Origin: Octopus sinensis
Lineage: Eukaryota
NCBI RefSeq assembly: GCF_006345805.1
Contig: NC_043007.1
Coordinates: 8,370,001-8,434,000, forward strand
DNA length: 64,000 bases
Direction: 5' to 3'
Both the position numbers and the translations under genes were made by a program. The notes under the pieces are model-generated. The model had not been told where the DNA came from. It did no database searches and was given only the letters and a program-made list of their open reading frames with translations. Positions 3,941-64,000 of this stretch are shown here, piece after piece. How positions within the stretch are numbered: the first letter of the stretch is position 1; each line of letters starts with the position of its first letter.

Positions 3941-4011
3941 AAAAAAACATGTGTGCCCAATGAGAGGAGTTAAAGAAGCACCAGCAGAAAGCAACCTCCT
4001 ACCTTTCCCAC

Positions 4012-5082: not shown

Positions 5083-5309
5083 CTAAAAAAAAGAAAAAGA
5101 AAAAAGACCATCAAAACCTGCAAAAATAAAGATTTCTGATGCACAAGGCATGGGTGTGGCTGTGTGGTTAAGAACTTAGCTTCCTAACCACATGGCATTT
5201 GGATTCAAACTTACCTGGCACCTTGGGCAAGTCTCTTGTCCTACAACCCCAGGAAAACAAAGCCTCGAGTGGATTTAGTTCACAGAAACTGAAAGATGCT
5301 CACCACACA

Positions 5310-29626: not shown

Positions 29627-30299
29627 TAAGTGTTTTCTACAAAGAAAGTAATGTGGAAGAGTGAAAGCTTTGGTATTTTACGCTTTCAAAATGCTTCTAT
29701 TTCCTGACACTATGGTTTTTGGGTTCACTTGGCATCTTGGGAAATGTCTTCTATTATTAGCCCTGGGCTGAACAAAGCCTTGAAAGTGAATTTGATAGAT
29801 GAAAACTAAAAGATACTGCTGGATGTATTTATAAACATACATATTCATAGAAACAAATAAAATGTGTTTTTCTCTCCTTGTGTTGACCTCATGTGATAGC
29901 TGTAAATGAGTGTCACCATCATACAAGCAGTGTCATTTGCTTCGAAAATATGCCCAGCCATGGTGAAATATTACTGTGCTTGGAAGTAGGAAGAGTATCT
30001 GGCTGCATGTTCAAACGATGGTAGTTGTTTTGAGATCTCTTAACCTTATAACAAAGAACATTTTCTCAGTTTCAATTCAAATGACGACCAGGTACATAAA
30101 TTATAATTTGTAATCATATTTTCACCAGCATGTAAAAAGCACCCTGTACACTCTGTAAAGTGGTTTGCATTGGGAAGGGCATCCAGCTGTGGAAATTGTG
30201 TCAAATGAGACAATTGGAGCCATGACAGCTCATGTCAAACCATCCAACACATGCTAGCATAGAAAATGAACATTAACTGATGAAGATCGAAATAGCTTC

Positions 30300-32010
30300 A
30301 GAGAATGGTATCCCCAAAACAGGAAACTGGGTCCTGTATGCTTGCAATAAGAGTGAACCAACCCAGCGGGGAGGGGTCGAAGAAAGAACGTGTGCGACCG
30401 TTCAAAGGACAGTGTTTCCGGTGCCAGGGTGCAGCAGAACGTCGGTAGCAGCGACTGCAACAATGAAAAGTGGCCGAGCTAGGAGCAGCGGAGAGGGGTC
30501 GAAGAAAGAATGTGTGCGACCGTTCAAAGGACAGTGTTTCCGGTGCCAGGGTGCAGCAGAACGTCGGTAGCAGCGACTGCAACAATGAAAAGTGGCCGAG
30601 CTAGGAGCAGCGGAGAGGGGTCGAAGAAAGAATGTGTGCGACCGTTCAAAGGACAGTGTTTCTGGTGCCAGGGTCCGCAACTGCGAGTCACCCAAGCCTG
30701 AGGTCATTTGCTACCAGAGACAGTGCTTGACTTCCAAGAGCTGAATGACCATGTATCATGTCATACAGGTGGCGAGGCCACAGATGTCTGTGAAGACACC
30801 TTGCGAAAGTGGAGGCAGATGACAGGGGCCTTCACGATCGTTGATTTGAAGTCGGCATTCCTACAGGTGCATGTGGCTGAGAAACTGTGGAAGTGCCAGC
30901 TTGTCAGGTATAAGGGCTGGATGTACTGTCTGACCAAGTTGGGGCTCGAGCTGAATTCAGCGCCAAAGATTATGGCAACAATTCTCAAAGCCATCCTGGG
31001 AAAAGTGGACAGAGTAAAAAAGGCCACCAAATTCGTACATTGATGATATTCTGATGGATGAAACCGTAATGCCAGCAATGGAGGTCATAGGCCACCTGAA
31101 GAGTTTTGGACTGATCGCCAAGCCACCAGAGGCAATGGAGGGAGGTGCTGCACTGGGCCTTAAGCTATGGAGAGACAAGGCCGGCGCGTTGGTGTTTCGG
31201 CGAGGGAATGAGATCCCAGAACTGGGCGCCAGCATGAGTAGACAGGAACTGTTCTCTGTGTGTGGGAAGCTGGTAGGACACTACCCGATTGCAGGATGGC
31301 TCCGGACAGCATGTAGCTTCATCAAGAGACGAGCCGAAGAAGTGAAGTGGAACGATAGAGTGGGGGAGAAGACAATCGACATGATGCAGGAAGTCTTGGT
31401 CAGAGTAAGAGCAGAGGATCCAGTGAGGGGTAGTTGGTATGTTCCCAAATCAAAGAGCGGGATTGTATGGTGTGACGCTAGTAGCATCGCAATAGAGGTT
31501 GTCTTAGAAGTGGGAGGCGTCATGGTGGAAGATGCAGCCTGGCTCAGGAAGACGGATGACTGCAGTCATACCAATGTGGCGGAGTTGGATGCCGTGTTGA
31601 AGGGGGTGACCTAGCCTTGAAGTGGGGGTTGCACACCATAGAAATCAGGACTGATTCGGCCATTGTACTTGGTTGGGTGACAGCAGTCATCACCAATGAG
31701 CGGAGGGTGCGGACCAAAGGGGCTGCAGAGATGCTGGTAAAGCGTCGATTGGGGATACTGCGTGAACTAACCACCGAGTTCAATCTGAAGCTGAGCGTGA
31801 TCTTTGTGCCTTCCGAGAAGAACAGGGTGGACGTCCTGACCAGGGTAAAGCGAGCCTGGTTGCAGGTGCCAGAGGATGCGGAGCAGGCTGTAGCTGCAGT
31901 ATGCCGTCTGAGTGACTCAGAGTTGCGGAGACTGCATACCATGCATCACATGGGTGTGGACAGGACATTGTTCCTAGCCAGAAAAGTTGACTCCGATGTA
32001 ACAAGATGGA
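30300..32010 (+). mobile_element. Degenerate Ty3/Gypsy-like LTR retrotransposon internal fragment
   Basis: GC-rich block with a gag CFRC knuckle remnant, RT (IVDLKSAFLQVHV; YIDDIL across a frameshift), RNase H (WCDASS...AELDAV...TDS) and an integrase HH remnant (HTMHHMG), in RT-RH-INT order. No LTRs identified. Confidence 0.82.
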
Positions 32011-32669
32011 GCGAGGGAATTTCAGTCGCTGGAATTCACTCGATAAATATTCTTGGAATCCCCTAACATAAAATGGCGGGAGGGTCACAGCTGGAAAACC
32101 TTTGCTCATAGGCCTGGTCTGGAGTTACACAACAACTGGAAGAAATCTTATAATTATTTCAGAAGATATAAAACAGAAACAAGAATTCGGTTTGAAAAAT
32201 GGTGAATCGAAACTAATTCTGAACATGAAGCAGCTTAGGCGACTGATTAAGAAGGATTTAAGTTTAATGATTGGCTTTTAACACTGACACAAGGCAATAA
32301 ATTTAGGGAGAGAGCGTTATTTATAGATTAAATCCATGCTAAATAATCGACTGTTTATTTTGAGGAAATCGTAAAAATGAAAAGTAAATTATAAAATGAG
32401 ATGAAAGGGAGGGGGGGAGCACGTGGCATTTTTTTCCTGTCAGAGATACTTTGGTTCGGTATTATACGGCACAGAAGTATTTCGCAAACGTAGTTGAAGT
32501 AGAAATCAATTAATTGTGCTAGTTATCGATATTTAGGAAGACAGTGTCACTAATTAATAAATTTAATAAACTAAATACCGAAATTAATTAACTGGAGTTT
32601 TGTTTTCCTTTTAACATTACGTTCACGTCGATATTGCGCATGCGTCAATACATACATACACGCGTGTTG

Positions 32670-33100: not shown

Positions 33101-33213
33101 CATTTCGAAGCACGTTGAGGCTTCGACTGAACGTCACTTTTCTGCGAAGAATCGTTGTTTTTTTTTTCCTCCGAAATCCTTACAACTTAGGATCTTAAAT
33201 ACAACTGACAGCG
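33100..33213 (+). other. Probable non-coding first exon of the RBM4/lark-like gene
   Basis: Lies just downstream of the promoter motifs and ends in a GCG|GTAAGA donor. The start position is approximate. Confidence 0.55.
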
Positions 33214-35253: not shown

Positions 35254-36713
35254 GGTACTAGTAGCGTAGAATGGACCCGGTTGCGCACACGCGCAATTTG
35301 TATATATATATACACAGACGTTTATAATTTTGAACAAAGTTTCGGTGGTGATGGTGGTGGTCATTAATGAACAAATTATTGATATATGTGCAGAATATGT
35401 TGCACAATATTGTGCAACATATTATTCTGCACATATATCACGGCAAAAATTTCTCCAATCTGTTACGGTTACATTTGCTATACGACATTCCTTTGCTAAA
35501 TCTTCTTTTGCCCAATAATATAATATATCAATAATTTGTTCACTAATGACCACCACCAAAACCGCGCGTAATTCAAAGTTGTTCACTTTGATATCAACAC
35601 GTGCGAAAAAATTTTGAGTATGGCTTCTGCATATCCAAGTGTAAAAGGAATTAATCACCGCGATATTGCCATCGCTTCAACAGCAGATAGTATTAATTGG
35701 CTTAAGAGACATGGACTTTTAAATACCCAGAAAATATGTACATCGTGTGGAGCTAGCATGAGCGAAGTAGCTAAAAAAAATTTGTCGGATGGAGTGATAT
35801 GGTCATGTGGAAGGCCTTGTAGAAAAATGGTTTCAATTAGAAAAGGAACATTTCTAGAAAATAGTAAATTGAAGTGTGAACAAATTATTGATATATTATA
35901 TTATTGGGCCAAAGAAGATTTAGCAACTCTCTGTTGAAAATTATATTTTTATATTCTAAATAATTTTGCAATTTCAAAAAATATATTAATTTTGCGTTTT
36001 TTAATTTGATAAATTCTAGGGAATAATTTTGCGCGTTTTTTGATAAATTCTACGGAAAGAATTTAGCCTGACAACTAATTCCGTGGTAGTGCCAAAAAAT
36101 TTATACATTTGTGTGAAGAAATTAATTCATTAAGTTTAACAAATTATATACGTCTGTGTAAAAAAAAAAATAATTAAGTTTCAGGAATTATATACGTTCG
36201 CGTTTGTGTAAAAAAAAAATTATTTAAGTTTTAAAAATTATTTACTTTGTTCGAAAAATATTGTTAATATTAATTACTTTTCAAGAATTATTTAATTTAT
36301 ATAATTAATTCATTTATCTGTAAAATAGTAAAAATATTCTGCAAATCCGCGAGGGAATCGCTATGTTGTCACTCAGCCAGCTAGAAATAGCAGCCAGATT
36401 TCCCTCCAATAACACCTTATTGTCTTAAAAAGCAGAAAAGTATCTAAAAAATCCGAGTTTTTTTATTTTGTTTTAGTGAAAATCGTGCGGGTGTTATTCT
36501 GTAATTTTACCAAAAAAGTTATATACATTTCTGTGAAGAAATTAATTCATTAAGTTTAACAAATTATATACGTTTGCGTGCGCGCACGTAACGCGCGATA
36601 CAAGTATATATATATCGCGCATGCGCCAGTCAGCTCGTAAGATCGGCTACATGCGTCTGGCTAGCGCGGACGCGCGTGTGCGCAAACCGGGTCCAGTCTA
36701 CGCTACTAGTACC
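35254..36713 (+). mobile_element. Rearranged Merlin (IS1595/ISXO2-like) transposon derivative
   Basis: About 40-bp TIRs (GGTACTAGTAGCGTAGA...). Truncated transposase N-terminus 35620-35937 (WLKRHGLL..CxxC..DG.W.C..C..SIRKGTF) typical of Merlin. No TSD seen. Confidence 0.8.
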
Positions 36714-38272: not shown

Positions 38273-38361
38273 GATTATTTCTGTGTTTTTTATTTATTTG
38301 TTAATAAACGATGCTGCGATGTGTAATTGATTCTTTGTTCTCCTTTCAGCAGCCGCTAACA

Positions 38362-38484
38362 ATGCCTACAAAAATATTCGTTGGTAACGTGAACCCCACC
38401 ACCAAAGCAGAACAATTACGGGTTTTGTTCGAGAAATATGGCAAAGTCACCGAGTGTGACATCATAAGAAATTATGCTTTTGTG
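38362..38484 (+). CDS. RBM4/lark-like RNA-binding protein, coding exon 1 (N-terminal half of the RRM)
   Basis: [10 protein letters not shown]...[19 protein letters not shown] contains RNP2 and RNP1 of the lark/RBM4 type. NAGNAG acceptor (cagcag, 38347-38352) and GTAAGC donor. Confidence 0.92.
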
Positions 38485-38925: not shown

Positions 38926-39298
38926 CAATGGTTCCCAGCCCGTTTATTTAAATGAGTTTTCCCACGGACCCCTTTTAATATGCTTATCCTTCATCATCAT
39001 CATCGTTTAACGTCCGTTCTCCATGCTCGCATGGGTTGGACAGTTCGACTGGGGATCTGGGAAGCCAGAGGGCTGCACCAGGCTCCAGTCTGATCTGGCA
39101 GTGTTTCTACAGCTGGATGCCCTTCCTAACGCCAACCACCCCGTGAGTGTAGTGGGTGCTTTTTACGTGCCAGGCGAGGCTGGCATCGGCCACGTTCGGA
39201 TGGTGCTTTTTTACGTGCCACCGGCACGGAAGCTAGTCTGGGTGGCGCTGATATAAAATTTTGAATTTAGTTCACGGACCCCAGGTTGGGAACCACTA
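38926..39298. mobile_element. hAT (Charlie-like) MITE with a nested RTE-UTR repeat
   Basis: CAATGGTTCCCA ... TGGGAACCACTA termini; degenerate 8-bp TSD gcataggg/gcttagag; retroposon inserted at about 38992-39250. Confidence 0.65.
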
Positions 39299-43763: not shown

Positions 43764-43847
43764 CACATGGAATATGACTCTGAGGCAGTTCAGGCTATCA
43801 GACAGCTGAATGGATACTCAGTCTGCAATTCAAGAATTCGAGTTGAG
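43764..43847 (+). CDS. RBM4/lark-like coding exon 2 (C-terminal half of the RRM)
   Basis: ttcatttag acceptor; HMEYDSEAVQAIRQLNGYSVCNSRIRVE; GAG|GTAAAA donor; phase 0 to 0. Completes the RRM. Confidence 0.92.
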
Positions 43848-46800: not shown

Positions 46801-47168
46801 CTCTTTCTCTATGGAAATTCTTCATTATTTTGCTACAGGTCTTTCTCCATTTTCTACATTTATTTTGTCTTGTTGCCTGTCTCTCTGACTGTTGCCTATC
46901 TCCCTGGCTCTTTTCTGCTCTCTCTCTCTCTCTCTCTCTTTTATAATTCTTTATTTTTCTCCTGCTGGCTCAGTCACTCTTTTTTTTTCCAAATTATTTT
47001 TTTCCCATTTCACTTTTTTAGTTTTCTTTCTCTGTTATAAAACTCTTTCTTCATACAACCATTCCTGTCTTATGTTATTCCTTCCTTTCTTCCTTGACCG
47101 CTTAATAGTCTCTTTCTGTCTTTCACCTCACATCTGTTTTCTCTTTCCATGTTTCTGTAGCATGATAG

Positions 47169-47228
47169 AGGGGGGGAGACATCGGCAAGCAGAAAAAGGG
47201 ACATCTGCCTCGGTACTTTTATATACAA
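47169..47228 (+). CDS. Candidate alternative exon (RGGDIGKQKKGHLPRYFYIQ)
   Basis: Follows a roughly 370-nt pyrimidine-rich tract; acceptors at 47160 and 47168; CAA|GTATAG donor. The peptide mirrors the protein's C-terminal motif. Confidence 0.5.
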
Positions 47229-50200
47229 GTATAGTGTCTGTGTATGTATACGATACACACACACACACACACACTGTTTGTGTATCGATGTTTCTCAACT
47301 GTCTTTTGTCTCAAACTCCTTCATTTTTCCAAAAAGAAGTTTTATTTAAATTGTTTTTGCAAGATTTTGCTTGTTTCTTCTTGTAAAGTAATCCATGTCC
47401 CACTTTGAGAAACATTGGTGTGTGTGTGTGTGTGTGTGTGTGTGTGGCATATGTCAATATAACCTATGTAAGCATTGGGAAACATAAAAATTATATATGA
47501 ACGCACATATGTGGGGATAAAATGCATGTATTTTATTATATCAGTGTGCTGAGTTGTCAATTGTCTTTCAATATTTCTTTTGGCTCCTGACACACCACAT
47601 TCAAACCCTGCCTTAGTCAACTTTGCATTTCATCCTTCCAGGGTCGATAGAATAAAGCACCAGTCAAGTGCTGTAGTTGGTTTGGTTGACTTGCCTTGTG
47701 CCTTTATTAGAAACCGTATATAATGTACAAGATTGTCATTATATATATGTATATATATATATATTGCAGTCTTGTCTAAGTTCCTTCATGTTTTGCCCTT
47801 TTTTCTTTTTGTTTATCCTCATGTTTGTTTATTGTTAACATTCCCTTTAAAAAAAACCCTAATTTTTTTTTGTTGCATTATTATGGTGTTAAAAATCCCC
47901 AAACAACTTATTCTATGATAGTGTGTAGAATTGTGAGGCTGTTTCTGTTTTGAGGTACAGATTTTGGAGTCCTTTTCTAATACTCAAATTAATTGTGTGA
48001 AAATAACTACAATTTTGAAAGCTGGTATTTATTTAAAATCGTACATTTTAAATCATTTATATTCATTTTCTGGATACCAGTATTTTGTTTTCCTATTTTG
48101 TTTTATTGGGTGGGTGGGTGTCATTCTAATAAACATTACAAAGTGCTCTTTTCAGATTAAATAATCAAAGCATCCAATCTTTAAAATAGATCAAAAAAGC
48201 AAAAAGAGTTTAATTTTTGCCTGCTTCTCTCTTCAACTGCAAAGATGCTAAAATAAATTATACTTGAAGCAATGTTCATGAAACTATTTCTATCATATAT
48301 ATTATATCCAGTAGTTTGTTTGGGTTTGATTTCCAATGGTTTCAACTTTTCATTCTTTTAGTCTGATTTTCAAACTGATTAAACCAAATTATTATTTGTA
48401 TAAAAACTATATATGCCATACGTTTGTAAACTTCGTAATATATTTCTTAATATCTGGGCACCTCTCCAGATGTTGGATCTATGTTATTTTCTAATCTGAA
48501 GACACATGAAATCAAATATTGTGCCCTCCATTAGTCTCTCTCTATATATATATATGAAATGACAAATAAAAGTATTCCTTTGTGAGACCATGGTAAATTG
48601 GATTTGTATAGCCCTGAACTTATGGGGATTTCAACATGATTCCTTAAGATAGCAGTTCTCTTGGCTTGCAGGTGAACAACCACATGTTTCTAAGTAAAAT
48701 ATAGGTCAAGGAATTAAGTTGTCCATCATTCTCTAAACTTACACTAAACCAAGAGGTCAACTGAACTTTTTTGACTGTATAAACCTGATGAAATATTGTT
48801 TTATGTAGCTTCACATTCTTAAAATATAAAAAAAGTTTTTAAACAGATTTGTTTTTTTACTATATCCTATGTTAGTCAGTGACTTATTAACAAACTTATT
48901 TTCCATTGATATCCCTGTTTGTATTTGTGGCACATGATAAATTCTCCGTTAATTGATGCCACAAACCAGTTGGGATTCCTTCATTTAAAGTCATTTGACA
49001 GCACTTGAAATTACTAATGTCTTCGGAAAAGTTATGGATGCTGCAGTCTACCATTTACACTCTTCATCAAAAAAAGAAAAGAAGAAAAAAAATCTTAAAG
49101 TATATTGCTACTGGACATCATAAGCATCCATTCATTTGCGACAGGTCCACCAATAGCTGACCTGCTACTCTTCTTAAAATTAAATTAATCCTTAAAATGT
49201 TTAAAATCTTTATAAGAATTGAAGTTGAGTAAAAAGAAGCTATTTTGTTCAGTGACATAGAAATCCACTTGTTCTATCTTAACTCTTTCATCACTGTATC
49301 TCTCCTAAAATAAAACTGCTTTCTCTGGGGCAGTTGATTTTGAAATTTGGTGGGATTTATCAAAGCACCCTCCTCCTGATTAACCAGGAGTCTGGACATA
49401 AAGGGTTCTTAATAGTAAATATGCACACTTCAAAAAGAGGATTTTTTCCCCTTAAAAGCAGTGCCACAGACAGATTGGTACCTTGATTTAAGTGCAGAGT
49501 ACAATCAATGCATTATTAGATATTTATTTTTTGCTGTTGCCAATTTATTTAATACCAAAGCCAGCAGATTGGATTGGCTTTGAGATCTTTTTCCCATGAT
49601 GAATTTACCTGTCATTTCAGTACAGCTACCTTCACTCAGAATGGCTTATATGGTGAAGCTGGAAGCTGACTTTCAATAATCCATATTACTCCACATATAT
49701 ATTTGCTGCTAAGTTCTTTGGTAACAATCATTGTTAAAAAAAAATAAAAATGGTTAAGTTCAAAGCTTTAACTGTAGTTGAAAGTTCTTCAGAAGCAGTT
49801 AATTCTCGCACACAAAACACCTGCATATAATCCTATAAGCATGATTTCTTAGATTCTTGATATTTGCTCAGATTATTTATCTTGCCTCTTAGCAGTCACC
49901 ATGGAGTTGTACTCCTCACTCATGCTTGAAAGCAGACCTGTTCTATTCAGTCTATCTGAAAGGGAGAATTCACTCTGGGATAGAATAACTTATACTGGCT
50001 TCATCTCTGATGAAAGCTGCTATAATTCTTTCCTAATTTATCTGGAAGTTTTCTGATAGATGTACTTGTGATAGTTTTCTTTTGTCACTGCAAACTATGG
50101 TTACCACACTTCAACTCTTAAACCTTGACAATGTTCAATATGATTTTGGGGAAATAATATAAAAAAAAAGCAAAATGGTATTCATCAATGAAAATGTGTG

Positions 50201-51300
50201 TGCCTATATATGCGCATTGCATGTGCATATGTAATATGCATGTTTTATATATATATATATATGTGTGTGTGTGTATATACATGTATATATACATATATAT
50301 ATATGTGTGTCTGTATATACATGTATAACTTGAATTCATGCATATATAGGCATTAATGATGGGGAGGGGAAGCAGCTCATTGAACGATTGGTTTTGAATT
50401 AAGCAAAGGGTCTATAAAATTTCCACTATCTTATTCAATTCTCTTTTTAATTCTATTTCTAATTAGTTGCTTCAAAATATAATAACTGTAGAATGAGAAA
50501 TTGTAGGTGGTTATTCATTCCTTTATTCATGGTTATAATTATTTTTGGAATGTTTTAAGCAAATTCAAAAAAAAAAATGAAAAGAAAAGAAATAATTTGT
50601 TGATAGATTTTTATAGCCCTTATAATGCCATATATATTAACAAATCAAAAAGATTACTCCATAGTCTATTTTAAAAAATTATATAAAATATTTTCTGGCT
50701 ATGTTTATAGATATTTAATTCAATATTAAAAGACTCTTGAATCTATTTCATCAAACATAATGCTATATAAAAAATTCTGTTTAAAAAAAAAAAATTGGTG
50801 CAATTTTATTGGAAACTTAAGGCATACATTTTAAATCTTGTAATATATATTTCAGAAAAAGGGATATAAAATTTATTTCACTGCATATACAAACTCTCTC
50901 TGTGGGTGTTTGTATCTATGCATGTAAATATATATATATATATATCTATCTATCTATATATATATATATATATATTGTGTACGTATATACATACACAAAT
51001 TGAGATTAAAGGTATATATCCGTTACCATTTATGGTTTTACTTTTTTTAAAGTATTGAAAGTAGCTTGTGTTGTATATATATATATATATAAATATATGT
51101 GTGTATAAATACTCCTTGGAATTGGCCGATAGATTTAATAAACGCACTTTACTTTCCAAAGTAGCTATTTGTTTAGATGGCAAATTGTTGTTGTTGTTGT
51201 TGTGCAAATTCATACCACCTCCGTGTTTACCAGTGTTAGGGCCAATCCCCAAATTCAGCCGTAACGCTTCAGAGTACTAAATTGCTGCCAGCTTTTCAAG

Positions 51301-51417
51301 GACGGACCGTTATTTAGTTTGCGCCTGTGTCATCGTGAATAGATTCTGCCAAGCCCCCTGACGTAAACAAGAATAGCATTCCCAAGGACAAGGAAGTCCC
51401 CAGCGAGCGTCATAAAG
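51301..51417 (+). other. Candidate stop-containing alternative exon A (DGPLFSLRLCHRE*)
   Basis: tactaaat branch-like site, ttttcaag acceptor and AAG|GTATGT donor. TAG at 51340-51342, with stops in all three frames. Confidence 0.6.
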
Positions 51418-52184
51418 GTATGTTAAAGTGGTTTTACGTTCTGCAGATATTTTTGCGTGCGTTCCTTTTTACTAGTTTATGATTGAATAGAGAGAGTGTG
51501 CTCTGTCTGTGTGTTGTGTTGTTTTGTGAGAATCTGCTCTGAAATGTCAAGAGTGCCAACCTGCCAATGTTGTTGATTTGTGACATAAAGTTTCTTGGTA
51601 TGTGTGCTTGAGTGAATGTGCATGTGTATAAAAGCTTCAATTAATGTCTGTATGGTGCAGGCAAGGCCAAATGACGAAGCAGTTTTGTTTCAGAAGTATT
51701 TGGTCTTGGGTTCAATCTCACTGCACAGCACCTTGGACAAATTTCTTCTACCATAGCTTTCGGTTGACCCAAATCTTGTGAGTGAAATTGGCCAGGTAGA
51801 AACCAAAAGCCTGTCAGATGGATGGGACTTTTTGAAAGGTCAACCATGTTGCTATATCATTGATTCCGCCTGAGGATTACAGTGAATGTACAAGACTCAG
51901 AACCTTACATGATCTTATGGTCAATGACTGTGTTGTCCAGTTGATCAAAGAACTGAAATCAATTCTTGTTTAAACCAAGAGAGGAAACATTTGCTATTTT
52001 ATACACGTGTATATTTTAGTTAATGCCTTTTTTTTTTTTTTTAATGAAATTTGAAAAGCTTCTTAGAGTTAACTTTTAATTTTTTTTTTTTTTTTTTCAA
52101 AATTCAAATTGGGTGAACTTTCGTACCAAAGTGAAGTTTCAGCTCACTGAATATTATATTTGGTGTGTTCTCCAATCCATTCAG

Positions 52185-52255
52185 TACTACTGTTTCCGCT
52201 GCGTAAACAATTTGTACAAACATCTGCGACGTGTTGATCAGCATCGTTCAGTTGC
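52185..52255 (+). other. Candidate cassette exon (YYCFRCVNNLYKHLRRVDQHRSV)
   Basis: ccattcag acceptor and GTAAGT donor; 71 nt, open in phase 0 and ends in phase 2; locally CpG-rich. Confidence 0.45.
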
Positions 52256-53609
52256 GTAAGTTAGAATATGGTGATCTCCTCGTCCTCTTTTAAAACTATT
52301 CGGTCTACACACTGCGTTGTTAAGCGTGTTTCCCACAACTTGGAGCATTGCCCGTTCTATGGTTTCAAAAACAGACAAAATCGAAATGCGTTATCTATTC
52401 GTTCTTAATTTTATTGACCGAAAATCATCGATTAATTTTTCAAGAAGCATCTCTTTACTTTTGATAATTTGTCAGTTTTCTAAAATTGAAAATAAGGATT
52501 AAACCTAATGCAAATACAGCTGAACTGATAATTATCTAATTTTCAAGATTAATTAATTAGGATGTTGGTAATTCATGAAAGCTGCTGCTGCTCATTTTTG
52601 TAGTTTTATTTTACTTAATGTTGGAAGCTCCACAGAATTGAACCAACTCACTTCTGTTGTGTCCTATATTTCTTATATCATTGATATTGTTTCTTTTTTC
52701 AGCTCATTTCATTTTTCACTTATTTAAAAAAAAAAAAAAAAAAAAAAAGAAATCTGGTCGTGTTGGATTGAGAATCTACAATTTCTTTCGCTATCTGCTT
52801 TTTGTGGAAGATGTTTTAGGCTTTAGACTGAGGTTATCTTTATATTTACTAACATTTTTGAGAATTGATTTTTAAATATCATTGCAAATATTGAAAAGAA
52901 TTTTAAGGAAATGAAAATTTGTCAAACCAAACATTGCGAAGAGAATGGTGATGATTTTCTACGTTATCAACATTTATTTGATTGGAGAGTCATTAGAAGT
53001 GTTCAAGGAATGGAGAAACTAAGCATTCTGTGCTTTTATCCATCATCTCAGATTGAGGAAGATAAAGTGTTTTCACTTGGGTTATGAGCTAGCAAAATCA
53101 GACAAAAAAACCCCCAAAAAAACCGGCAGCCATGCTTTCTCTGTCCTTGTCTTAGATGATGTGCAAAATCCTGAAATGTTGGATTCTTCAATCCTTATAA
53201 CAATTGACCCTATTTAACTCTCCTGCAAATACCAAAATTGTTTCTTTGTATCATCCTTTGGTATCTTTTGTCTTTTAATGAATTTTCTGATTCCCCGCTT
53301 CCCCCCATAATTATATATTTCTTTCTGGCAGACCACTTAGTGCCTTGTGATATTTTAAGCATTCCTACAGTCTCAATTTAGCTCGACCAGTTGCCACCTG
53401 CCTTTTTTTTCTTTTTCCCTTTTTTTCTCTCATTTTTTTTACCTTTTAAGCCATTCTTCATTACCATTATTGAATAAATGGTTGAAGATGCTGTGTATGT
53501 ATATATATTTTTATATATACACACTTGCAAATTTTATTGTTTTATAGTTGTCTGCTTTAGTCTTGCTTCATTTTAGTTGCTAAAGCAATTTTTTTTATTT
53601 CTTTTCCAG

Positions 53610-53729
53610 GATGGCCCCTTGCATATTGGAACATCTGATTATTCTGTATCAGCAGATTTGGCGACGCCTTCATATTTTAAGAACCACATAGTCATGCCAC
53701 TCAAGAGTATAGCATCCAGTATCAAATAA
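53610..53729 (+). CDS. Candidate alternative terminal exon B (DGPLHIGTSDYSVSADLATPSYFKNHIVMPLKSIASSIK*)
   Basis: Strong tttatttcttttccag acceptor, 39 open codons, and a TAA that overlaps AATAAA (53725-53730). Confidence 0.55.
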   Translation, partial: DGPLHIGTSDYSVSADLATPSYFKNHIVMPLKSIASSIK

Positions 53730-54172
53730 AGTATTTTAGACTTGTTGAGTCTTTGAGAATCTTATTCCATTATTGTATTCTGTTCTGTAATTCAATTGCT
53801 AAAATGTGTGGGGTAAAATTGAACATTTTACTGTTTTCTTGTAACATTTTAATCGTCATGATTTAAAGGTCTAAAAATATCAAACACCTCTTCAATGGGT
53901 AGCAAACACTGGTTTTATGTAACATTCCTATACGGTGTCTTAATATTCCTGGTCTTCAAAATCTGTACCTCTTAATTCACTCGGTTTACACTTTGTTGCA
54001 TGCTTTTTGCAATTGAGGATTTTTACAAGTTTTTTCTTATGTTGTGTGCGTGTGTGAGTCACAAAAGAAACCAATTTTATCCATTAAAAAATGCTATTTC
54101 AATGGTTTAGAATGGATTTCTTAATCATTCTGTGTAGGGAATTCTTGCTGATTTCTTGCATTTTCCTTTCAG

Positions 54173-54231
54173 TTGTCACATGGTAAAAAGACAGAAAATG
54201 CTGACAAAAAACCAACAGATAGAGCATTTCC
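54173..54231 (+). CDS. RBM4/lark-like coding exon 3 (long isoform)
   Basis: ttttcctttcag acceptor and GTGAGT donor; LSHGKKTENADKKPTDRAFP, phase 0 to 2. Gives the usual RRM end VE-LS. Confidence 0.85.
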
Positions 54232-55125
54232 GTGAGTTGCTTGACATTATTTTGTTTTCTCCATTTTATTTTAAAAACTTCATTCCAATTAGCTCTGTTA
54301 ATTAACTAGGACTTGGCTCTTGATCCCAACATGTGCCTCAGACCTCTTGGTGATATAGTACAAAACAGCCCATTTCAAAATGTTAATGCTTGAATTAAAA
54401 TTGTTGACAGCATCTTAAAAGCAACACAGTCTTGATTATGGAAAGATTGTGTTTGGTAGCATCCTATCTGAGGCCTCTTGTTTGTGGCCTATTTTAAATT
54501 GTTTATATTTCAGTTAAAAATATTTTATCGGAATTTTGTACAAGAACATGCTGAGAAATCATTTTACTAAATTTGTAGTTTTTTTTTAAAATTAATTCCC
54601 AAATTTATTGAAATACAAGCAATACATTTTATTAAAGTTTTATTGTGAAGACTTAACCATTAATTCCCTTTTCCTTCTAGCAAGAGGTAGACCCAATGTT
54701 GGGGAATTTGACCCACTCAATTCCAGTGTATGATCAGAGGGCACAGTTCATAGCTTCAGTTCATTTTTGACCCTCATAACCTCTGTAACTTTTGAATGCA
54801 TCAATAACTCAATTTGAAAAGGCCTGTATGTTTATTGGAAATTATTTTGATAGGGGCCAAACATCTCAGCTAGCCATTCAATTTTATTTAATTAGTTTAG
54901 TTCCTGGGTACATTCTGAAGACGTTAACTACTACTGTGTTTCAAATTCATAATTCCTGTAATTGTGATCTTTCTCAAGAATTTAGAACAAAATTATCAAC
55001 TGCTTTCAAATATTCCTGGGTTCTGTGGAATAATGTTGGTTTTATTTGGCTTTTACTCTTTTTAACCTGTCTGTGTTGCTTATGCATCTGTAGTTCATCA
55101 TGTACTTGTGTTTTATCTATTGAAG

Positions 55126-55587
55126 ACCAAGAAAGCCTTTGGGTCAAGGAGGACTATCCAATTTTAACAGTCGTTTCACACCCGGCAGCTTTAACAACAA
55201 CAACAACAACAACTGGTCAGACAACTATGACCAAAGGCCACGGTTTCGTGACAACTTCCCAGATTATTATGAAAGGGATGGACGAATGCCATCTGTTCCA
55301 GACAGGTATCCAGGTGGGCCGATGTCCGACAGAATGGGATCCATGCAAGACAGGTACCCTGCACAAGGACCACCAAGAGATCGCATGATGCCTCCACAAC
55401 ACTCAGAAAGATTTCCTTCCTCCCAGCCTGACAGAATGAGACCCTCCAGTCCATTTGATAGGAGAGGAGCACCGCCGCCTCCTCATGCCATGAGAGACAA
55501 CTACTATATGGACAGAGACCCTTACTACCGTGAGAGAAGTCCTCTTTCTCGGATGCCTCCTGATTATTATGATAGAAATATGAAACG
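55126..55587 (+). CDS. RBM4/lark-like coding exon 4 (R/D/P/Y/M low-complexity region)
   Basis: A phase-2 entry continues into ORF 55139. Contains DPYYRERSP-type motifs typical of lark tails; CG|GTCAGT donor. Confidence 0.85.
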
Positions 55588-55697
55588 GTCAGTATTTTCC
55601 CCTTTTTGATTGTCAACATTTCGTTATATGATAATTAATTTAGTCAGTCCTCTCTTCTTGCAAAATCTCTCTTACCTCACTTTTCGTTTCCTTACAG

Positions 55698-56381
55698 AGA
55701 CTACCCACCTTCTCCATATCAGAATAATGATAACATGGGTGGTTTCAAGAGAGACACCCCGATGGGTCGAGACATGGGTATGCGATCGATGGGCATGGAT
55801 GCTCCAGTCCGAGACCAGATGCCATCTTCTCGTGGTGGAATGGAACCAATGAGGAGAGACAATATGGTTGGCAATAGGGGTCCTGGTCCTATGGGGGTCG
55901 GTCGAGATTCCTACAGGCAAGGAGATTCAATGGACCATCACAACATGGGAAATCGACAGATGGGTTCAATGATGCGAGACCGTCAAGAGATGGGTGGTGG
56001 AGGAGGTGGCATGAACAACTCTGGCGGCTATAACAGCTACAATGGTCAGCAACAGGGTGGTGGTGGTGGCGGCGGCGGTGGTGGGGGAGGTGGTTACGGC
56101 ATGAACCATTCTTACAACAACTTCAATAATGACCGATCGAGATCTGGTCCTGGTATGGACAATAACTACAGGGAGAACTACAGAGATAACAACTATAGAG
56201 AGAATAATTACAGGGAGAACAACTACCGAGACAACTACCAAGGAATGGGGGGAGGAGGAGGAGGCGGGGTGGTGGTGGTAATATGGGGGGTGGTGGAGGT
56301 GGAAGACAGCAAATGGGCTCGCAAAAAAAGGGTAACTTACCTGACCAAAGTTTTTTACAGACAGGTCCAATATTTTTTTAA
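55698..56381 (+). CDS. RBM4/lark-like terminal coding exon (G/M/N/R-rich prion-like tail), with a probable 1-nt assembly deletion near 56266-56269
   Basis: ttccttacag acceptor, phase 2. As assembled the frame ends at 56388 with an atypical VVVVIW tail. Adding one G gives GGGNMGGGGGGRQQMGSQKKGNLPDQSFLQTGPIFF* ending at 56381. Confidence 0.8.
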
Positions 56382-58127
56382 AATATGAATCCTTTCTCAG
56401 ATTATAGATACTACTAATAATGATAATAATAGTGGTTCTTTGAAAAGTAAAAAAAGAAACATCTTCACCTGGTATTTTTGTTGGTGTTTATAAAAAAAAA
56501 CAAAGAAAAACATATTTTTAAGTATCAAGATTTCATTGAGATTAATATTGTTTCCCAAGTGTTAAATACGAACAAAATACTTTTAACTCCTCATCCAAGT
56601 TTGTTCACTATACATAACATACCATCACAGACTGCATCAGTCAGTTTCTTTTCCCATCCCACCCCACATTTTATCCCCTACTTAGTATAATTCCCACACA
56701 TCTTTAACTGGATTATATATTATACAAATGAAATAGAAACAAAAGATTCCACACTTTGTTCTTTTCTTTTCAAAGTCTTGTCAATTCACTCTTGTAGGAT
56801 AAGCTTTCTATAGATATCTTCCATTGTGTGTATTTGGTGTTTCTTAAGGGCCCAGTGCTTTGAATTGTCTTCACTGAAACCATTTTTGATCCTATCTGAA
56901 TCCTAACCATTGGAGGGCAGATCTTCATTTTCCAACTCCACTTTTCTCATTTCAACTTTCAATCAACATCCACACTCTAATTTCATTTCTTTGGTATTCC
57001 AACCTATTTTCATAATTCATTACTAAATTTATCGTCTTTTTTTTTTTTTTAACCTTGTTTTTCTTGATACCTCATATGCTGGTTTCCTTTTATTTCAGTT
57101 GATTCTTTAGAATTTTTGTGATGTGCTCAAATTAAATATGTTCTAAATAATTTATTAGTGTGACATAATTTCAACATCATGTACCTAATTGCTGCCTCAA
57201 TTCTGCGAAAGTTTCTGACTTCTGTCTCGATTTAACAAAGGTAACTAGAAAACTGATTTCATGTGTTTCTCTGTTGAAATTGTTTGTGATATTTTAAGGG
57301 TATAGGTATTAGTGATTGCTTTATTTGTCTTTATTATTTACAGTGTTATTTTTAATTCCCATAAACTGTTAGGCCTAAACCCACACTGATTTAATTTTGA
57401 ATTTCAAATGTGATTAGAAGTTGTTGTTAGTTGATGTCTCTTTTCAAATCATCTTTCATACCTCATAAATCTGTTAGCTCAGTGCAGACTTTAGCTTTCT
57501 CCATTGAGAATGAAGAATTAACCATAAAATATGACACATGCTTCCATATACTCACTGATCAATGTTTTGATTGTCATTTAAATTTTATTTCCATTCCTTA
57601 GTTTTTTTCTTGTTTTATTTTTTAAGACAATGTCCCTTTTGCTTGTGATTATACCCAATGATTCACTTCCAGCAAAATAAAATCACCTTTCCCTATTTGT
57701 CTTCCCCCTTCTTATCAGTATTAAGGTCTGCCGTTGTTTTCTATTTTGCTTTGAAATGTTTCTTGTGTAGAGAAAGATAAAAGTCCTTTTATAGGATCTC
57801 TATTCTGACAGTTCTATTCTTAATGTTCTCCGACTCTACCCGTGTGGAAACCTGCTCAATGTACTGCCTGCATTTCTTCATTCCATGTTTCCAATGTCTA
57901 TCACTTAAAACAGAGCCATTACAAACTTTCAAAAAAGGAAGAAAAAAAAAGGTGGCAAAGCAGAGTGAACAAAAACCTTTTTTTTAATCGTTATTATTAT
58001 TTTACAAATTGTAATTTTAATATTGAGAGAAAAAAAAAATGGAAAATATTTCCCCACCTTTTTTGTGTTTGATATTTCTTAGCTGTAAGTTACCAATGTC
58101 TTAGATGTCTGTAAAATTTTTTTTAAA

Positions 58128-58145: not shown

Positions 58146-59322
58146 AGTTCGTTTTTCTTTCATGGTTGTTTGTTTTAGCTTAAAAAAATGCATGTTTCTG
58201 GATTCTATTTGCGTCTGGGAAGAGTCATTCTGTTTTAACACATTCTATTAAACATACTCACTGGTTCAATTTTGCTCCTCCCACCCCAGTTGTCATTGCG
58301 TCTTGCAACCTCTTCAATGTCTGTTATTAAAGAGGTGTAAGAAGCAACCTAAATTTTAAGTTGGAAAAAAACTGAGTGGAAATTGAACTACTGTGTTAAT
58401 TAATAAGGCATTAAAACAGAATGACTCTTCCAACACAACAAACTATGCTTCAACACACAAATTCACATAAAAAATCTTGTAAACTAAATACAAAAACGAG
58501 ATGGCATGTAAAAAGCACCATTCAAACATGGTCGTTGCCAGTGACACTTAAGAAAGCCACTACACTTGGAGTGGTTGGCGTTAGGAAGGGCATCCAGCTG
58601 GAGAAACTCTGCCAGATCAGATTTGAGCCTGGTAGATCATTATCATCGTCGTTTAATGTCTGCTTTCCATGCTGGCATGGGTTGGACGGTTTGACTGAAA
58701 ACTAGTAAGCTGGGAGGCTGCCCTAGACTCCAATCTGATTTGGCAAGGTTTCTACAGCTGGATGCCCTTCCTAATGCCAACCACTCTGAGAGTGGGTGTA
58801 TTTTATGTGGCACTGGCATCAGCCATGCTTGAATGGTGCTTTTTACATGCCAGTCAGGTGGTGAAATAAATTGCTAATCATGTGGTTTTGAGATCAGTCC
58901 CACTCCACAGCACCTTGTATATGTGTGTGTTCATGTCTCCTTGTCTTGATATAAACAAACATCACCACCATCCTATGTGTTATGTCTCATAGTTCTAGTT
59001 TTCTGTCAAAACATGCCAAGCGTCCATCCTTGACATGACCATGGAATGTTGAAATAATGTGATCTGGAGGTGGTGGGGATTTCTCTCCATGCTAGCGATA
59101 TGAACAAGAGTGTATTTTGCACCAAGAAGACAATATCAGAGCTTCTCTCGTGCTATCTACCACAGTATACTTTGTTCTAATAGAACATCCATGTTTTAAG
59201 TGGGGATAAATATTCCCTCTTGCTAATATGTAGAGGCTAGATATTTTTCAGTATGTCCACAGCTATTCCTCATCGTCTTCATATTCTAATCATGTGTTGC
59301 AGGAGAAACACCTAGGCATACG

Positions 59323-59641
59323 TCATCATCATCGTTTAACGTCCGTTTTTCCATGCTGGCATGGGTTGGACTGTTTGTCCGAGGACTGGCAAGCCAGGAG
59401 GCCACGCCAGGCTCAAATCTGATCTGGCAATGTTTCTACTGCTGGATTCCCTTCCTAACGCCAACCACTCCAAGAGTGTAGTGGGAGCTTTTTACATTCC
59501 ATTGGCACAGGGGCTAGTCAGGTGGCACTGGCATCAATCATGTTTGGATAGTGCTTTTTATGTGCCGCCAGTCAGGGAGTATTGGCATCGCCCACGTTCG
59601 GATGGTGCTTATTACGTGCTACTGGCATGACAGCCAGTCAG
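59323..59641 (-). mobile_element. RTE 3' UTR-type repeat that hosts the satellite
   Basis: Starts catcatcatcgtttaacgtccg and grades through diverged subrepeats into the array. Confidence 0.8.
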
Positions 59642-62600
59642 GGCACTGGCATTGACCATGTTCGGATGGTGCTTTTTATGTGCTACCAGCACGGGAGCCA
59701 GTCAGGGCACTGGCATTGGCCACGTTCGGATGGTGCTTTTTATGTGCTACCAGCATGGGAGCCAGTCAGGGCACTGGCATTGGCCACGTTCGGATGGTGC
59801 TTTTTATGTGCTACCAGCATGGGAGCCAGTCAGGGCACTGGCATTGACCATGTTCGGATGGTGCTTTTTATGTGCTACCAGCATGGGAGCCAGTCAGGGC
59901 ACTGGCATTGGCCACGTTCGGATGGTGCTTTTTATGTGCTACCAGCATGGGAGCCAGTCAGGGCACTGGCATTGGCCACGTTCGGATGGTGCTTTTTATG
60001 TGCTACCAGCACGGGAGCCAGTCAGGGCACTGGCATTGGCCACGTTCGGATGGTGCTTTTTATGTGCTACCAGCACGGGAGCCAGTCAGGGCACTGGCAT
60101 TGGCCACGTTCGGATGGTGCTTTTTATGTGCTACCAGCATGGGAGCCAGTCAGGGCACTGGCATTGGCAACGTTCGGATGGTGCTTTTTATGTGCTACCA
60201 GCACGGGAGCCAGTCAGGGCACTGGCATTGGCCACGTTCGGATGGTGCTTTTTATGTGCTACCAGCACGGGAGCCAGTCAGGGCACTGGCATTGGCCACG
60301 TTCGGATGGTGCTTTTTATGTGCTACCAGCATGGGAGCCAGTCAGGGCACTGGCATTGGCCACGTTCGGATGGTGCTTTTTATGTGCTACCAGCACGGGA
60401 GCCAGTCAGGGCACTGGCATTGGCCACGTTCGGATGGTGCTTTTTATGTGCTACCAGCACGGGAGCCAGTCAGGGCACTGGCATTGTCCACGTTCGGATG
60501 GTGCTTTTTATGTGCTACCAGCACGGGAGCCAGTCAGGGCACTGGCATTGGCCACGTTAGGATGGTGCTTTTTATGTGCTACCAGCATGGAGCCAGTCAG
60601 GGCACTGGCATTGGCCACGTTCGGATGGTGCTTTTTATGTGCTACCAGCACGGGAGCCAGTCAGGGCACTGGCATTGGCCACGTTAGGATGGTGCTTTTT
60701 ATGTGCTACCAGCACGGGAGCCAGTCAGGGCACTGGCATTGGCCACGTTAGGATGGTGCTTTTTATGTGCTACCAGCACGGGAGCCAGTCAGGGCACTGG
60801 CATTGTCCACGTTCGGATGGTGCTTTTTATGTGCTACCAGCACGGGAGCCAGTCAGGGCACTGGCATTGGCCACGTTAGGATGGTGCTTTTTATGTGCTA
60901 CCAGCATGGGAGCCAGTCAGGGCACTGGCATTGTCCACGTTCGGATGGTGCTTTTTATGTGCTACCAGCATGGGAGCCAGTCAGGGCACTGGCATTGACC
61001 ATGTTCGGATGGTGCTTTTTATGTGCTACCAGCATGGGAGCCAGTCAGGGCACTGGCATTGGCAACGTTCGGATGGTGCTTTTTATGTGCTACCAGCACG
61101 GGAGCCAGTCAGGGCACTGGCATTGGCCACGTTCGGATGGTGCTTTTTATGTGCTACCAGCACGGGAGCCAGTCAGGGCACTGGCATTGGCCACGTTAGG
61201 ATGGTGCTTTTTATGTGCTACCAGCACGGGAGCCAGTCAGGGCACTGGCATTGTCCACGTTCGGATGGTGCTTTTTATGTGCTACCAGCACGGGAGCCAG
61301 TCAGGGCACTGGCATTGGCCACGTTAGGATGGTGCTTTTTATGTGCTACCAGCATGGGAGCCAGTCAGGGCACTGGCATTGTCCACGTTCGGATGGTGCT
61401 TTTTATGTGCTACCAGCATGGGAGCCAGTCAGGGCACTGGCATTGACCATGTTCGGATGGTGCTTTTTATGTGCTACCAGCATGGGAGCCAGTCAGGGCA
61501 CTGGCATTGGCACGTTCGGATGGTGCTTTTTATGTGCTACCAGCACGGGAGCCAGTCAGGGCACTGGCATTGGCCACGTTCGGATGGTGCTTTTTATGTG
61601 CTACCAGCACGGGAGCCAGTCAGGGCACTGGCATTGGCCACGTTCGGATGGTGCTTTTTATGTGCTACCAGCATGGGAGCCAGTCAGGGCACTGGCATTG
61701 GCCACGTTCGGATGGTGCTTTTTATGTGCTACCAGCACGGGAGCCAGTCAGGGCACTGGCATTGGCCACGTTCGGATGGTGCTTTTTTGTGCTACCAGCA
61801 TGGGAGCCAGTCAGGGCACTGGCATTAACCATGTTCGGATGGTGCTTTTTATGTGCTACCAGCATGGGAGCCAGTCAGGGCACTGGCATTGGCCACGTTC
61901 GGATGGTGCTTTTTATGTGCTACCAGCACGGGAGCCAGTCAGGGCACTGGCATTGGCCACGTTCGGATGGTGCTTTTTATGTGCTACCAGCATGGGAGCC
62001 AGTCAGGGCACTGGCATTGGCCACGTTCGGATGGTGCTTTTTATGTGCTACCAGCATGGGAGCCAGTCAGGGCACTGGCATTGGCCACGTTCGGATGGTG
62101 CTTTTTATGTGCTACCAGCACGGGAGCCAGTCAGGGCACTGGCATTGGCCACGTTCGGATGGTGCTTTTTATGTGCTACCAGCACGGGAGCCAGTCAGGG
62201 CACTGGCATTGACCATGTTCGGATGGTGCTTTTTATGTGCTACCAGCATGGGAGCCAGTCAGGGCACTGGCATTGGCAACGTTCGGATGGTGCTTTTTAT
62301 GTGCTACCAGCACGGGAGCCAGTCAGGGCACTGGCATTGGCCACGTTCGGATGGTGCTTTTTATGTGCTACTACCAGCATGGGAGCCAGTCAGGGCACTG
62401 GCATTGGCCACGTTCGGATGGTGCTTTTTATGTGCTACCAGCACGGAGCCAGTCAGGGCACTGGCATTGGCCACGTTCGGATGGTGCTTTTTATGTGCTA
62501 CCAGCACGGGAGCCAGTCAGGGCACTGGCATTGTCCACGTTCGGATGGTGCTTTTTATGTGCTACCAGCATGGGAGCCAGTCAGGGCACTGGCATTGACC

Positions 62601-64000
62601 ATGTTCGGATGGTGCTTTTTATGTGCTACCAGCATGGGCAGCCAGTCAGGGCACTGGCATTGGCCACGTTCGGATGGTGCTTTTTATGTGCTACTAGCAC
62701 ACGGGAGCCAGTCAGGGCACTGGCATTGGCCACGTTCGGATGGTGCTTTTTATGTGCTACCAGCATGGGAGCCAGTCAGGGCACTGGCATTGGCCACGTT
62801 CGGATGGTGCTTTTTATGTGCTACCAGCATGGGAGCCAGTCAGGGCACTGGCATTGGCCACGTTCGGATGGTGCTTTTTATGTGCTACCAGCATGGGAGC
62901 CAGTCAGGGCACTGGCATTGGCCACGTTCGGATGGTGCTTTTTATGTGCTACCAGCATGGGAGCCAGTCAGGGCACTGGCATTGGCCACGTTCGGATGGT
63001 GCTTTTTATGTGCTACCAGCACGGGAGCCAGTCAGGGCACTGGCATTGGCCACGTTCGGATGGTGCTTTTTATGTGCTACCAGCACGGGAGCCAGTCAGG
63101 GCACTGGCATTGACCATGTTCGGATGGTGCTTTTTATGTGCTACACCAGCATGGGAGCCAGTCAGGGCACTGGCATTGGCCACGTTCGGATGGTGCTTTT
63201 TATGTGCTACCAGCACGGGAGCCAGTCAGGGCACTGGCATTGGCCACGTTCGGATGGTGCTTTTTATGTGCTACCAGCATGGGAGCCAGTCAGGGCACTG
63301 GCATTGGCCACGTTCGGTTGGTGCTTTTTATGTGCTACCAGCATGGGAGCCAGTCAGGGCACTGGCATTGGCCACGTTCGGATGGTGCTTTTTATGTGCT
63401 ACCAGCACGGGAGCCAGTCAGGGCACTGGCATTGCCATGTTCGGATGGTGCTTTTTATGTGCTACCAGCATGGGAGCCAGTCAGGGCACTGGCATTGGCC
63501 ACGTTCGGATGGTGCTTTTTATGTGCTACCAGCACGGGAGCCAGTCAGGGCACTGGCATTGGCCACGTTCGGATGGTGCTTTTTATGTGCTACCAGCATG
63601 GGAGCCAGTCAGGGCACTGGCATTGGCCACGTTCGGATGGTGCTTTTTATGTGCTACCAGCATGGGAGCCAGTCAGGGCACTGGCATTGACATGTTCGGA
63701 TGGTGCTTTTTATGTGCTACCAGCATGGGAGCCAGTCAGGGCACTGGCATTGGCCACGTTCGGATGGTGCTTTTTATGTGCTACCAGCACGGGAGCCAGT
63801 CAGGGCACTGGCATTGGCCACGTTCGGATGGTGCTTTTTATGTGCTACCAGCACGGGAGCCAGTCAGGGCACTGGCATTGGCCACGTTCGGATGGTGCTT
63901 TTTATGTGCTACCAGCACGGGAGCCAGTCAGGGCACTGGCATTGGCCACGTTCGGATGGTGCTTTTTATGTGCTACCAGCATGGGAGCCAGTCAGGGCAC
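59642..64000. repeat. 64-bp satellite array (about 68 copies, runs off the window)
   Basis: Unit GGCACTGGCATTGGCCACGTTCGGATGGTGCTTTTTATGTGCTACCAGCAYGGGAGCCAGTCAG; period measured as 64 (59642 to 59706). Confidence 0.97.

Follow-up and report, generated by a model that had tools for sequence, protein, structure and literature searches.

Truncating alternative splices after the RRM of an octopus lark-like gene and an internal echo of its conserved tail: a candidate case of unproductive splicing

The gene and its main transcript

The window analysed here is a stretch of 64,000 nucleotides (nt) of Octopus sinensis DNA (assembly GCF_006345805.1, contig NC_043007.1, positions 8,370,001 to 8,434,000), and all positions are counted from its first letter. 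It holds one gene on the plus strand, whose lark-type RRM is coded by 38362-38484 together with 43764-43847. The 69 RRM residues are identical to those of the O. vulgaris protein P0002, annotated as 'RNA-binding lark-like'. Judged from its sequence, the source is a single-RRM lark/RBM4-like gene of an octopus (Octopus sinensis), without a zinc knuckle. The subject of this work is the intron behind the RRM and the alternative splices in it. By analogy with other RNA-binding proteins, we hold with moderate confidence that these splices truncate the product after the RRM and give unproductive isoforms that serve self-regulation through alternative splicing coupled to nonsense-mediated decay (AS-NMD). 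The same intron contains a peptide-level echo of the C-terminal tail of the protein. A preliminary description had read this echo as a hidden exon that rebuilds the tail in a short isoform.

Pfam places RRM_1 at residues 5-67 of P0001, the relative that represents the long form, and of P0002, with no other match above the cut-off. The CCHC knuckle pattern C-x2-C-x4-H-x4-C is absent from both proteins and present in the lark/RBM4 matches. AlphaFold models (33 aligned orthologues) are confident only over about residues 1-70 of P0001, the remainder being predicted as disordered. P0001 appears to come from another cephalopod; it groups with P0002 in the RRM tree at 100/97, and the deeper forks show no settled order for the mollusc single-RRM group. 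Two more RRM loci in the genome, L008 (G000:C12) and L010 (G000:C7), match P0001 at 36-37%. Rfam gave 0 matches in 33000-58500.

The splice evidence comes from contigs of four runs (X4, X1, X13 and X15), for which 15 of 176 joints are listed. Among the 20 runs 14 were guessed to be RNA and none is recorded as such; X4, X1 and X13 are taken as RNA because they contain GT..AG joints that X15 lacks. Contigs of these three give the main path 33213>38350, 38484>43764, 54231>55126 and 55587>55698, none of which occurs in the DNA-like X15. The main joint 43847>54173 lies outside those listed, and is assumed from P0001, which reads IRVE and then LSHGKK. One X13 contig begins exactly at 54173 and not at the shared AG two bases before; this may point to one more exon upstream whose last base is not G, or to a mere break in coverage. 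The features of the gene are collected in Table 1.

Table 1. Features of the lark-like gene and its alternative splice sites (a slash marks the end of an exon; aa, amino acids; UTR, untranslated region)
Feature	Positions	Strand	Details
5' UTR exon	33158..33213 (start is a lower bound)	+	donor GCG/GTAAGA; an X4 contig has a loose end ahead of 38349 that matches here
Exon carrying the start codon (ATG 38362) and the first 41 aa of the RRM	38350..38484	+	joint 38484>43764 in X4 and X13, not in X15; P0002 identical
Exon completing the RRM (ends IRVE, phase 0), shared donor of the alternative paths	43764..43847	+	
Long polypyrimidine tract	46899..47160	+	81% pyrimidine over 250 nt, the intron maximum; 8/80 control strands reach that
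Candidate cassette	47161..47228	+	acceptor 47161 (68 nt, frameshifting) or 47169 (60 nt, motif-like frame); donor CAA/GTATAG
Candidate poison cassette	51234..51417	+	acceptor 51234 (C, then stop) or 51301 (13 aa, stop 51340); donor AAG/GTATGT
Used alternative acceptor with extended exon	53610..54231	+	39-aa tail from DGPLHI, stop 53727-53729, AATAAA at 53725; splices to 55126
59-nt exon of the long isoform (LSHGKK...)	54173..54231	+	joint 54231>55126 in X4, X1 and X13; matches P0001
Exon of the R/D/P/Y-rich low-complexity region	55126..55587	+	contig joints
Last exon: G/M/N-rich region, tail and 3' UTR	55698..58113 (end is the reach of an X1 contig)	+	
C-terminal motif ending TGPIFF, then TAA	56322..56381 (19-mer 56322-56378)	+	

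Truncating acceptors behind the RRM

Acceptor 53610 is in use. One X1 contig aligns from the AG at 53608 to 54231 and then joins 55126, and an X4 contig covers 53810 at a depth of 52.8 against 611.7 at the main joint (rough figures). The direct product of 43847>53610, with the upstream cassette skipped, is P0002 of O. vulgaris (NCBI), in which the RRM is followed by DGPLHI; this is a genome annotation whose transcript support is not visible. The stop codon of this path is premature, since the X1 contig runs on to 55126. On the same contig, 502 nt separate it from the 54231>55126 junction downstream, which exceeds the 50-55 nt criterion for nonsense-mediated decay (NMD) and favours decay over a stable isoform.

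The preliminary description had proposed a short isoform, consisting of the RRM and the terminal motif and free of the long low-complexity domain. One half of this proposal stands: an RRM-only form without the disordered part of about 400 aa is supported by the use of 53610, by P0002 and by the AlphaFold model. A short form carrying the motif is not supported, as P0002 joins the RRM directly to DGPLHI. The X1 contig carries a 30-nt foreign leader that ends in AG. Inferring from the start of its alignment, this fits donor 43847 or 51417 and not 47228, where the exon ends in CAA.

A second truncating element would be the candidate poison cassette at 51234-51417. Its donor is among the 2 best of the 626 GT sites of the intron by U1 match. 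Entry at 51301 leads to a stop 75 nt before the donor, and entry at 51234 to a stop at once. An X4 contig starts exactly at the AG before 51234 and continues unspliced beyond 51417, which is a weak hint. A run of 23 A at 52726-52748 may have primed oligo-dT on pre-mRNA and so account for the intronic contigs at 51232-52705. The word GTAACG, which we take to be an RBM4 binding word, stands inside the candidate cassette at 51261-51266 and occurs 4 times in 33000-58200.

The relative P0007, found in 6 Logan contigs, has the same layout of RRM and short tail with a different tail of 8 aa that starts with TLPVF. Past the proline, the P0002 and P0007 tails cannot be aligned with each other. Truncation after the RRM is shared with P0007 while the peptide is not, as expected if unproductive splicing turns over (PMC4379411). 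No form of this kind was present among the fetched non-cephalopod proteins.

The conserved C-terminal tail

In the assembled window a frame break of 1 nt near 56262-56267 puts the tail out of frame with the last exon. Spliced contigs restore the frame, by one additional base behind 56267 in X4 and X13 and by a change of -2 nearby in X1; among the rows listed for the DNA-like X15 (26 more are not listed) no such change was seen. The break is either an assembly error or an allele. The same tail ends P0001 and the full-length members of its cluster. Conservation in bivalves and gastropods covers its last 12 residues, and the first 7 are common only to P0001-type relatives. The tail pattern occurs in 48 of the 188 fetched proteins, with 24 distinct ends, and in 4 of 80 metagenome loci, and the mollusc consensus reads Q-S-x-[LF]-[QA]-[TS]-x-P-I-[FY]-F. 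On the strength of these alignments, the tail is a real conserved mollusc motif.

Neither the tail nor the cassette has a Pfam match. A HMMER search with the 37-aa tail gave 0 matches, and the ESM Atlas returned RRM clusters only. In the AlphaFold model the tail has a predicted local distance difference test score of about 55 and no secondary structure; docking of the tail on the RRM is therefore not supported. In the literature searched, no paper was found on the mollusc single-RRM lark-like group or on its tail.

Several gastropod orthologues form pairs or sets that are identical until about 16 residues from the end, one member with the tail motif and one without (P0182/P0120, P0164/P0085/P0166, P0178/P0169, P0171/P0168 and P0172/P0170; the Aplysia and Biomphalaria pairs are named isoforms). 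In gastropods the inclusion of the motif is thus decided at the 3' end. Many bivalve proteins with a length of 190-220 aa (P0003, P0142, P0045, P0157) stop at RPPP.YY.RR, which is the site of the 110-nt octopus intron 55588-55697. Their ends suggest a conserved retained intron that removes the tail; the octopus contigs listed are spliced across this intron. The tail codons themselves contain splice-like sites (56345-56361 and 56329-56337), namely a T-run with CAG just before TGPIFF and a donor-like GGTAAC in KKGN. The first of these is in the same register as the junction between Q and D in the echo described below. A splice 43847>56361, which would yield the RRM followed by TGPIFF, is not among the joints listed.

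The internal echo of the tail

As the preliminary description had claimed, the frame 47169-47228 is open over 60 nt, is bounded by AG and GT and encodes the peptide in question. Positions 51301 and 53610 are each preceded by AG and read DGPLFS and DGPLHI. The joined 19-mer aligns without gaps to the tail at 56322-56378, with 10/19 identical residues (BLOSUM62 38+18). The differing codons of shared residues had been taken as a sign of protein-level selection; this argument is void, because 6 of the 10 shared residues differ in codon and 5.6 of 10 are expected for unrelated DNA that codes for the same residues.

To score the echo, the tail was matched to every open cassette in combination with a downstream acceptor, and the best spliced match was taken. 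The real intron reaches 58, at donor 47228. The controls were 81 strands of 10 kb each (40 genome tiles on both strands and the reversed intron); they gave 29.1 +/- 3.3 with plausible sites and 35.8 +/- 2.5 with any AG/GT, with a maximum of 43, so that 0/81 reach 58. Permutation of the motif did not reach 58 either (0/400 with moderate sites, 0/150 with any AG/GT), the maximum of all 550 being 50. With 46 windows of the protein as targets, again 0/81 controls reach 58, and 3/81 reach 52, which is close to the value obtained with 53610, the acceptor in use; the Gumbel-extrapolated p is then 2e-4 to 5e-3 for 58 and 0.02 for 52. The best-matching of the 46 windows is exactly the conserved tail, and the match continues three residues upstream (IGK/MGS, score 45). 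The echo is more than chance within this gene, but some events of its size would be expected to turn up whenever very many windows are scanned.

The likeness is unevenly distributed. In the non-conserved first part of the tail the echo is identical at 6/7 positions, where non-cephalopod orthologues have a mean of 0.56/7; in the conserved last 12 it is identical at 4 or 3, against an orthologue mean of 6.7. On the tail profile, whose Q, P and F columns are partly invariant through selection by pattern, the internal copy scores 8.0 or 5.4 versus 26-42 for 27 non-cephalopod ends, and it has residues never seen in those ends at -11, -10, -9, -6 and -1. From the set Q at -11, S/G at -10, P at -4, an aromatic at -2 and a last F, it lacks the conserved Q-S and the terminal F; it retains the P, and has F at -2 only via 51301. 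The copy is also non-terminal, as 7 or 33 residues would follow it. These values do not support the idea of a short form that keeps the terminal signal.

Both splice sites of the 47169-47228 exon are weak. Acceptor 47169 is a second AG, 8 nt after the stronger 47161, with a pyrimidine share of 0.60 versus 0.85; entered at 47161, the exon reads a different, frameshifting peptide. Donor 47228 has neither G-1 nor G+5, at least one of which is present in each of the 5 donors of the main transcript, and two GT sites near it match the U1 consensus equally well. When paths through three candidate acceptors and the cassette were modelled, only 47169>54173 kept the long frame. Editing of adenosine to inosine (A-to-I) at 47228, the last exon base, would make CAG/GT, a better donor, with Gln kept; this is speculation, and no change of this type was present among the rows listed.

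The preliminary description had named the junctions by which the cassette could be recognised. Among the joints listed there is none at 47161, 47169, 47228 or 51301, nor at 51234; only the use of acceptor 53610 was borne out, from the contig and P0002 and not from 47228. The absence of cassette joints weighs little, because no joint of 43847 is listed either, not even the main one (an adjacent repeat was skipped). An X13 contig passes unspliced through 46951-47375. Depth in the cassette bin is low (X4 2.28, X1 0.92, and X13 5.19 due to the unspliced contig), and contig depth cannot rank parts of one gene. The cassette peptide was found, in either frame, in 0/188 fetched proteins, a search that is insensitive because the short-protein set consists of 6 candidates and the used 53610 form also has no Logan copy. 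No DNA of other cephalopods was present among the 80 metagenome loci.

It is conceivable that the mRNA of some tissue includes 47169-47228, which would combine with DGPL(F/H) into a working tail beside the RRM, so that the partner is kept and the disordered domain lost. The control and permutation scores, the choice of the conserved tail among 46 windows and the upstream extension of the match speak for this, as do the long pyrimidine tract before the exon and a junction in register with a used acceptor. We regard it as improbable, since it requires the second AG and a donor without G-1 and G+5, while one contig is unspliced across the exon and the X1 leader before 53610 has AG as its last bases. 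The copy lacks both the conserved core and the terminal F and would not stand at the C-terminus, the codon differences are at chance level, and both products still stop before later junctions or donors. Overall, a working switch of this kind is possible at a low probability.

The echo could also go back to an old duplication, in the cephalopod lineage, of the segment that codes for the tail; the copy would since have been interrupted by an intron, have decayed and now serve only as raw material for poison exons. We give this little credence. The similarity peaks where non-cephalopod orthologues differ, which is expected of descent from the gene's own tail, and DNA identity between the cassette route and the tail is 33/57 in register. 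Against it, the DNA match is not significant (best p 0.02, for cassette versus tail, among 20 comparisons) and does not extend beyond the exon, no further copy was found in the genome at E < 1, and an intron gain would be required exactly between Q and D. A recent DNA duplication was rejected as the origin of the echo on the same insignificant DNA match. A repeat origin of the cassette or of the 51301 exon was rejected too, each having a single genomic match, with the caveat of common words.

On sequence grounds, the echo is not regarded as a working second terminal signal; it would be a decayed relic, or else a rare coincidence that surfaced because the scan was very large.

Relation to lark/RBM4 and other mollusc proteins

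The gene shares with RBM4 and Drosophila Lark the lark-type RRM (MPTKIF...NYAFVHM), and its relatives are named 'lark-like' or 'RBM4.1-like'. It differs in having one RRM and no CCHC knuckle. A second RRM belongs to canonical RBM4/Lark and is seen too in the two-RRM matches. The lark/RBM4 matches have ends of the type RY(A/T)(P/Y/F), while the octopus gene ends in the mollusc-type hydrophobic tail. The mollusc single-RRM lark-like proteins (P0014 of Tegillarca, P0019 of Crassostrea, P0056 of Haliotis, P0095 of Lottia and P0182 of Aplysia) have the same single RRM, an R/P/Y-rich middle with RPPP.YY and the terminal motif. The octopus gene has the features of this group, a single RRM followed by LS[HT]GK, RPPP.YY and a terminal QS...PI[FY]F, and differs by a longer G/M/N-rich region and a QKK.NLP lead-in.

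Proposed unproductive splicing and a possible stable short form

Genes of serine/arginine-rich (SR) and heterogeneous nuclear ribonucleoprotein (hnRNP) proteins offer the closest model. According to PMC4379411 and PMC10592454, splicing after the RRM of such genes, for example SRSF3 with its truncated product, puts a premature stop before later junctions. These forms are described there as NMD substrates for self-limitation, with truncated RRM proteins arising when NMD is weak. PMC4379411 adds that unproductive-splicing exons turn over in evolution. The octopus gene differs in that it does not code for an SR protein, and its NMD sensitivity and autoregulation would only be expected by analogy.

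The mechanism may be pictured as follows. The 10-kb intron after the RRM holds alternative acceptors that cut the frame short. The long mRNA takes exon 54173-54231, and its product has the conserved tail at its end; a minor path enters 53610, adds 39 aa to the RRM and continues through the later junctions. The 53610 path and the cassette 51234/51301-51417 would be unproductive, removed by NMD and set by the level of the protein itself, as in SR/hnRNP genes. The element 47161-47228, if used, would frameshift from its natural acceptor and join the unproductive class. Any protein that escapes NMD would be an RRM-only competitor.

Several observations weigh against this reading. In X1, the path assembled before 55126 is that through 53610, a prominence not expected of an RNA that decays fast. 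Its stop codon overlaps with an AATAAA, so that some of the transcripts could terminate at this point and evade NMD. The echo is stronger than chance would readily give. DGPL follows 0 of 42,947 control AG sites, yet it follows two acceptors here. Against TGPIFF the short tail of P0007 reaches 17, which has a rate of about 1e-4 per control AG site. This match was noticed post hoc; the T-rich intron inflates such scores, and 2 unrelated AG sites of its 457 reach 15.

The AATAAA may also be read as part of a switch that needs no cassette. CoAM is an RRM-only, dominant negative splice form of CoAA/RBM14, from which the low-complexity repetitive C-terminal domain is removed (PMC1874587). By analogy, the 53610 exon might be polyadenylated at 53725 in some cells and give a stable RRM-only competitor of the long form, and the short xP[LIV]F-like sequence directly behind the junction may be under selection. 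The two cases agree in that splicing leaves the RRM part and removes a low-complexity C-terminus. CoAM keeps two RRMs and uses a competing 5' site; the octopus form has one RRM, uses alternative 3' sites and is known from annotated or predicted proteins only. A GT-rich stretch follows the AATAAA at 53725, the isoform is annotated as a protein in O. vulgaris (P0002), and P0007 is an RRM-only form with the TLPVF start; together with the CoAM precedent (PMC1874587) these points lend the idea some support. It is nevertheless judged unlikely, as the X1 contig and the X4 cover at 53810 show read-through past 53725 to 54231 and 55126, and the tails of P0002 and P0007 diverge past the proline. The AS-NMD reading is preferred.

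Other features of the window

A purine/pyrimidine-skewed repeat array at 3848-5129 has open frames on both strands, that of the minus strand being a 420-aa E/D-rich repeat. A long GC-rich tandem array with units of about 117 nt and long open frames occupies 59552-64000; it apparently derives from a dispersed repeat that is also present at 39000-39250 and 58640-58860. Broken mobile-element frames lie at 18659-19399, 30298-32124, 11168-11551 and 35572-35937, which by their translation we take to be mariner-like, retrotransposon-like, helicase-like and IS1595-like pieces.

Significance

The echo is statistically strong, unexplained and located at alternative splice sites. It is a rather doubtful conjecture that cephalopod lark-like genes keep a paralogue of the tail split over alternative exons, with the cassette as its first half and DGPLF, DGPLH and the TLPVF of the relative as interchangeable second halves. 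If this were true, splicing would place the tail signal either directly on the RRM or behind 400 disordered residues, which would complement the gastropods and bivalves, where isoforms drop the tail entirely. Use and conservation of the cassette, if they proved true, would make this a rare instance in which splicing over an alternative junction reconstitutes a short linear motif. The tail itself, which belongs to no Pfam family and is included or dropped by gastropod and bivalve isoforms, gives a handle toward a binding partner or a localisation signal. Truncation after the RRM is a known control device, and the AS-NMD reading, if it is right, would add a cephalopod example.

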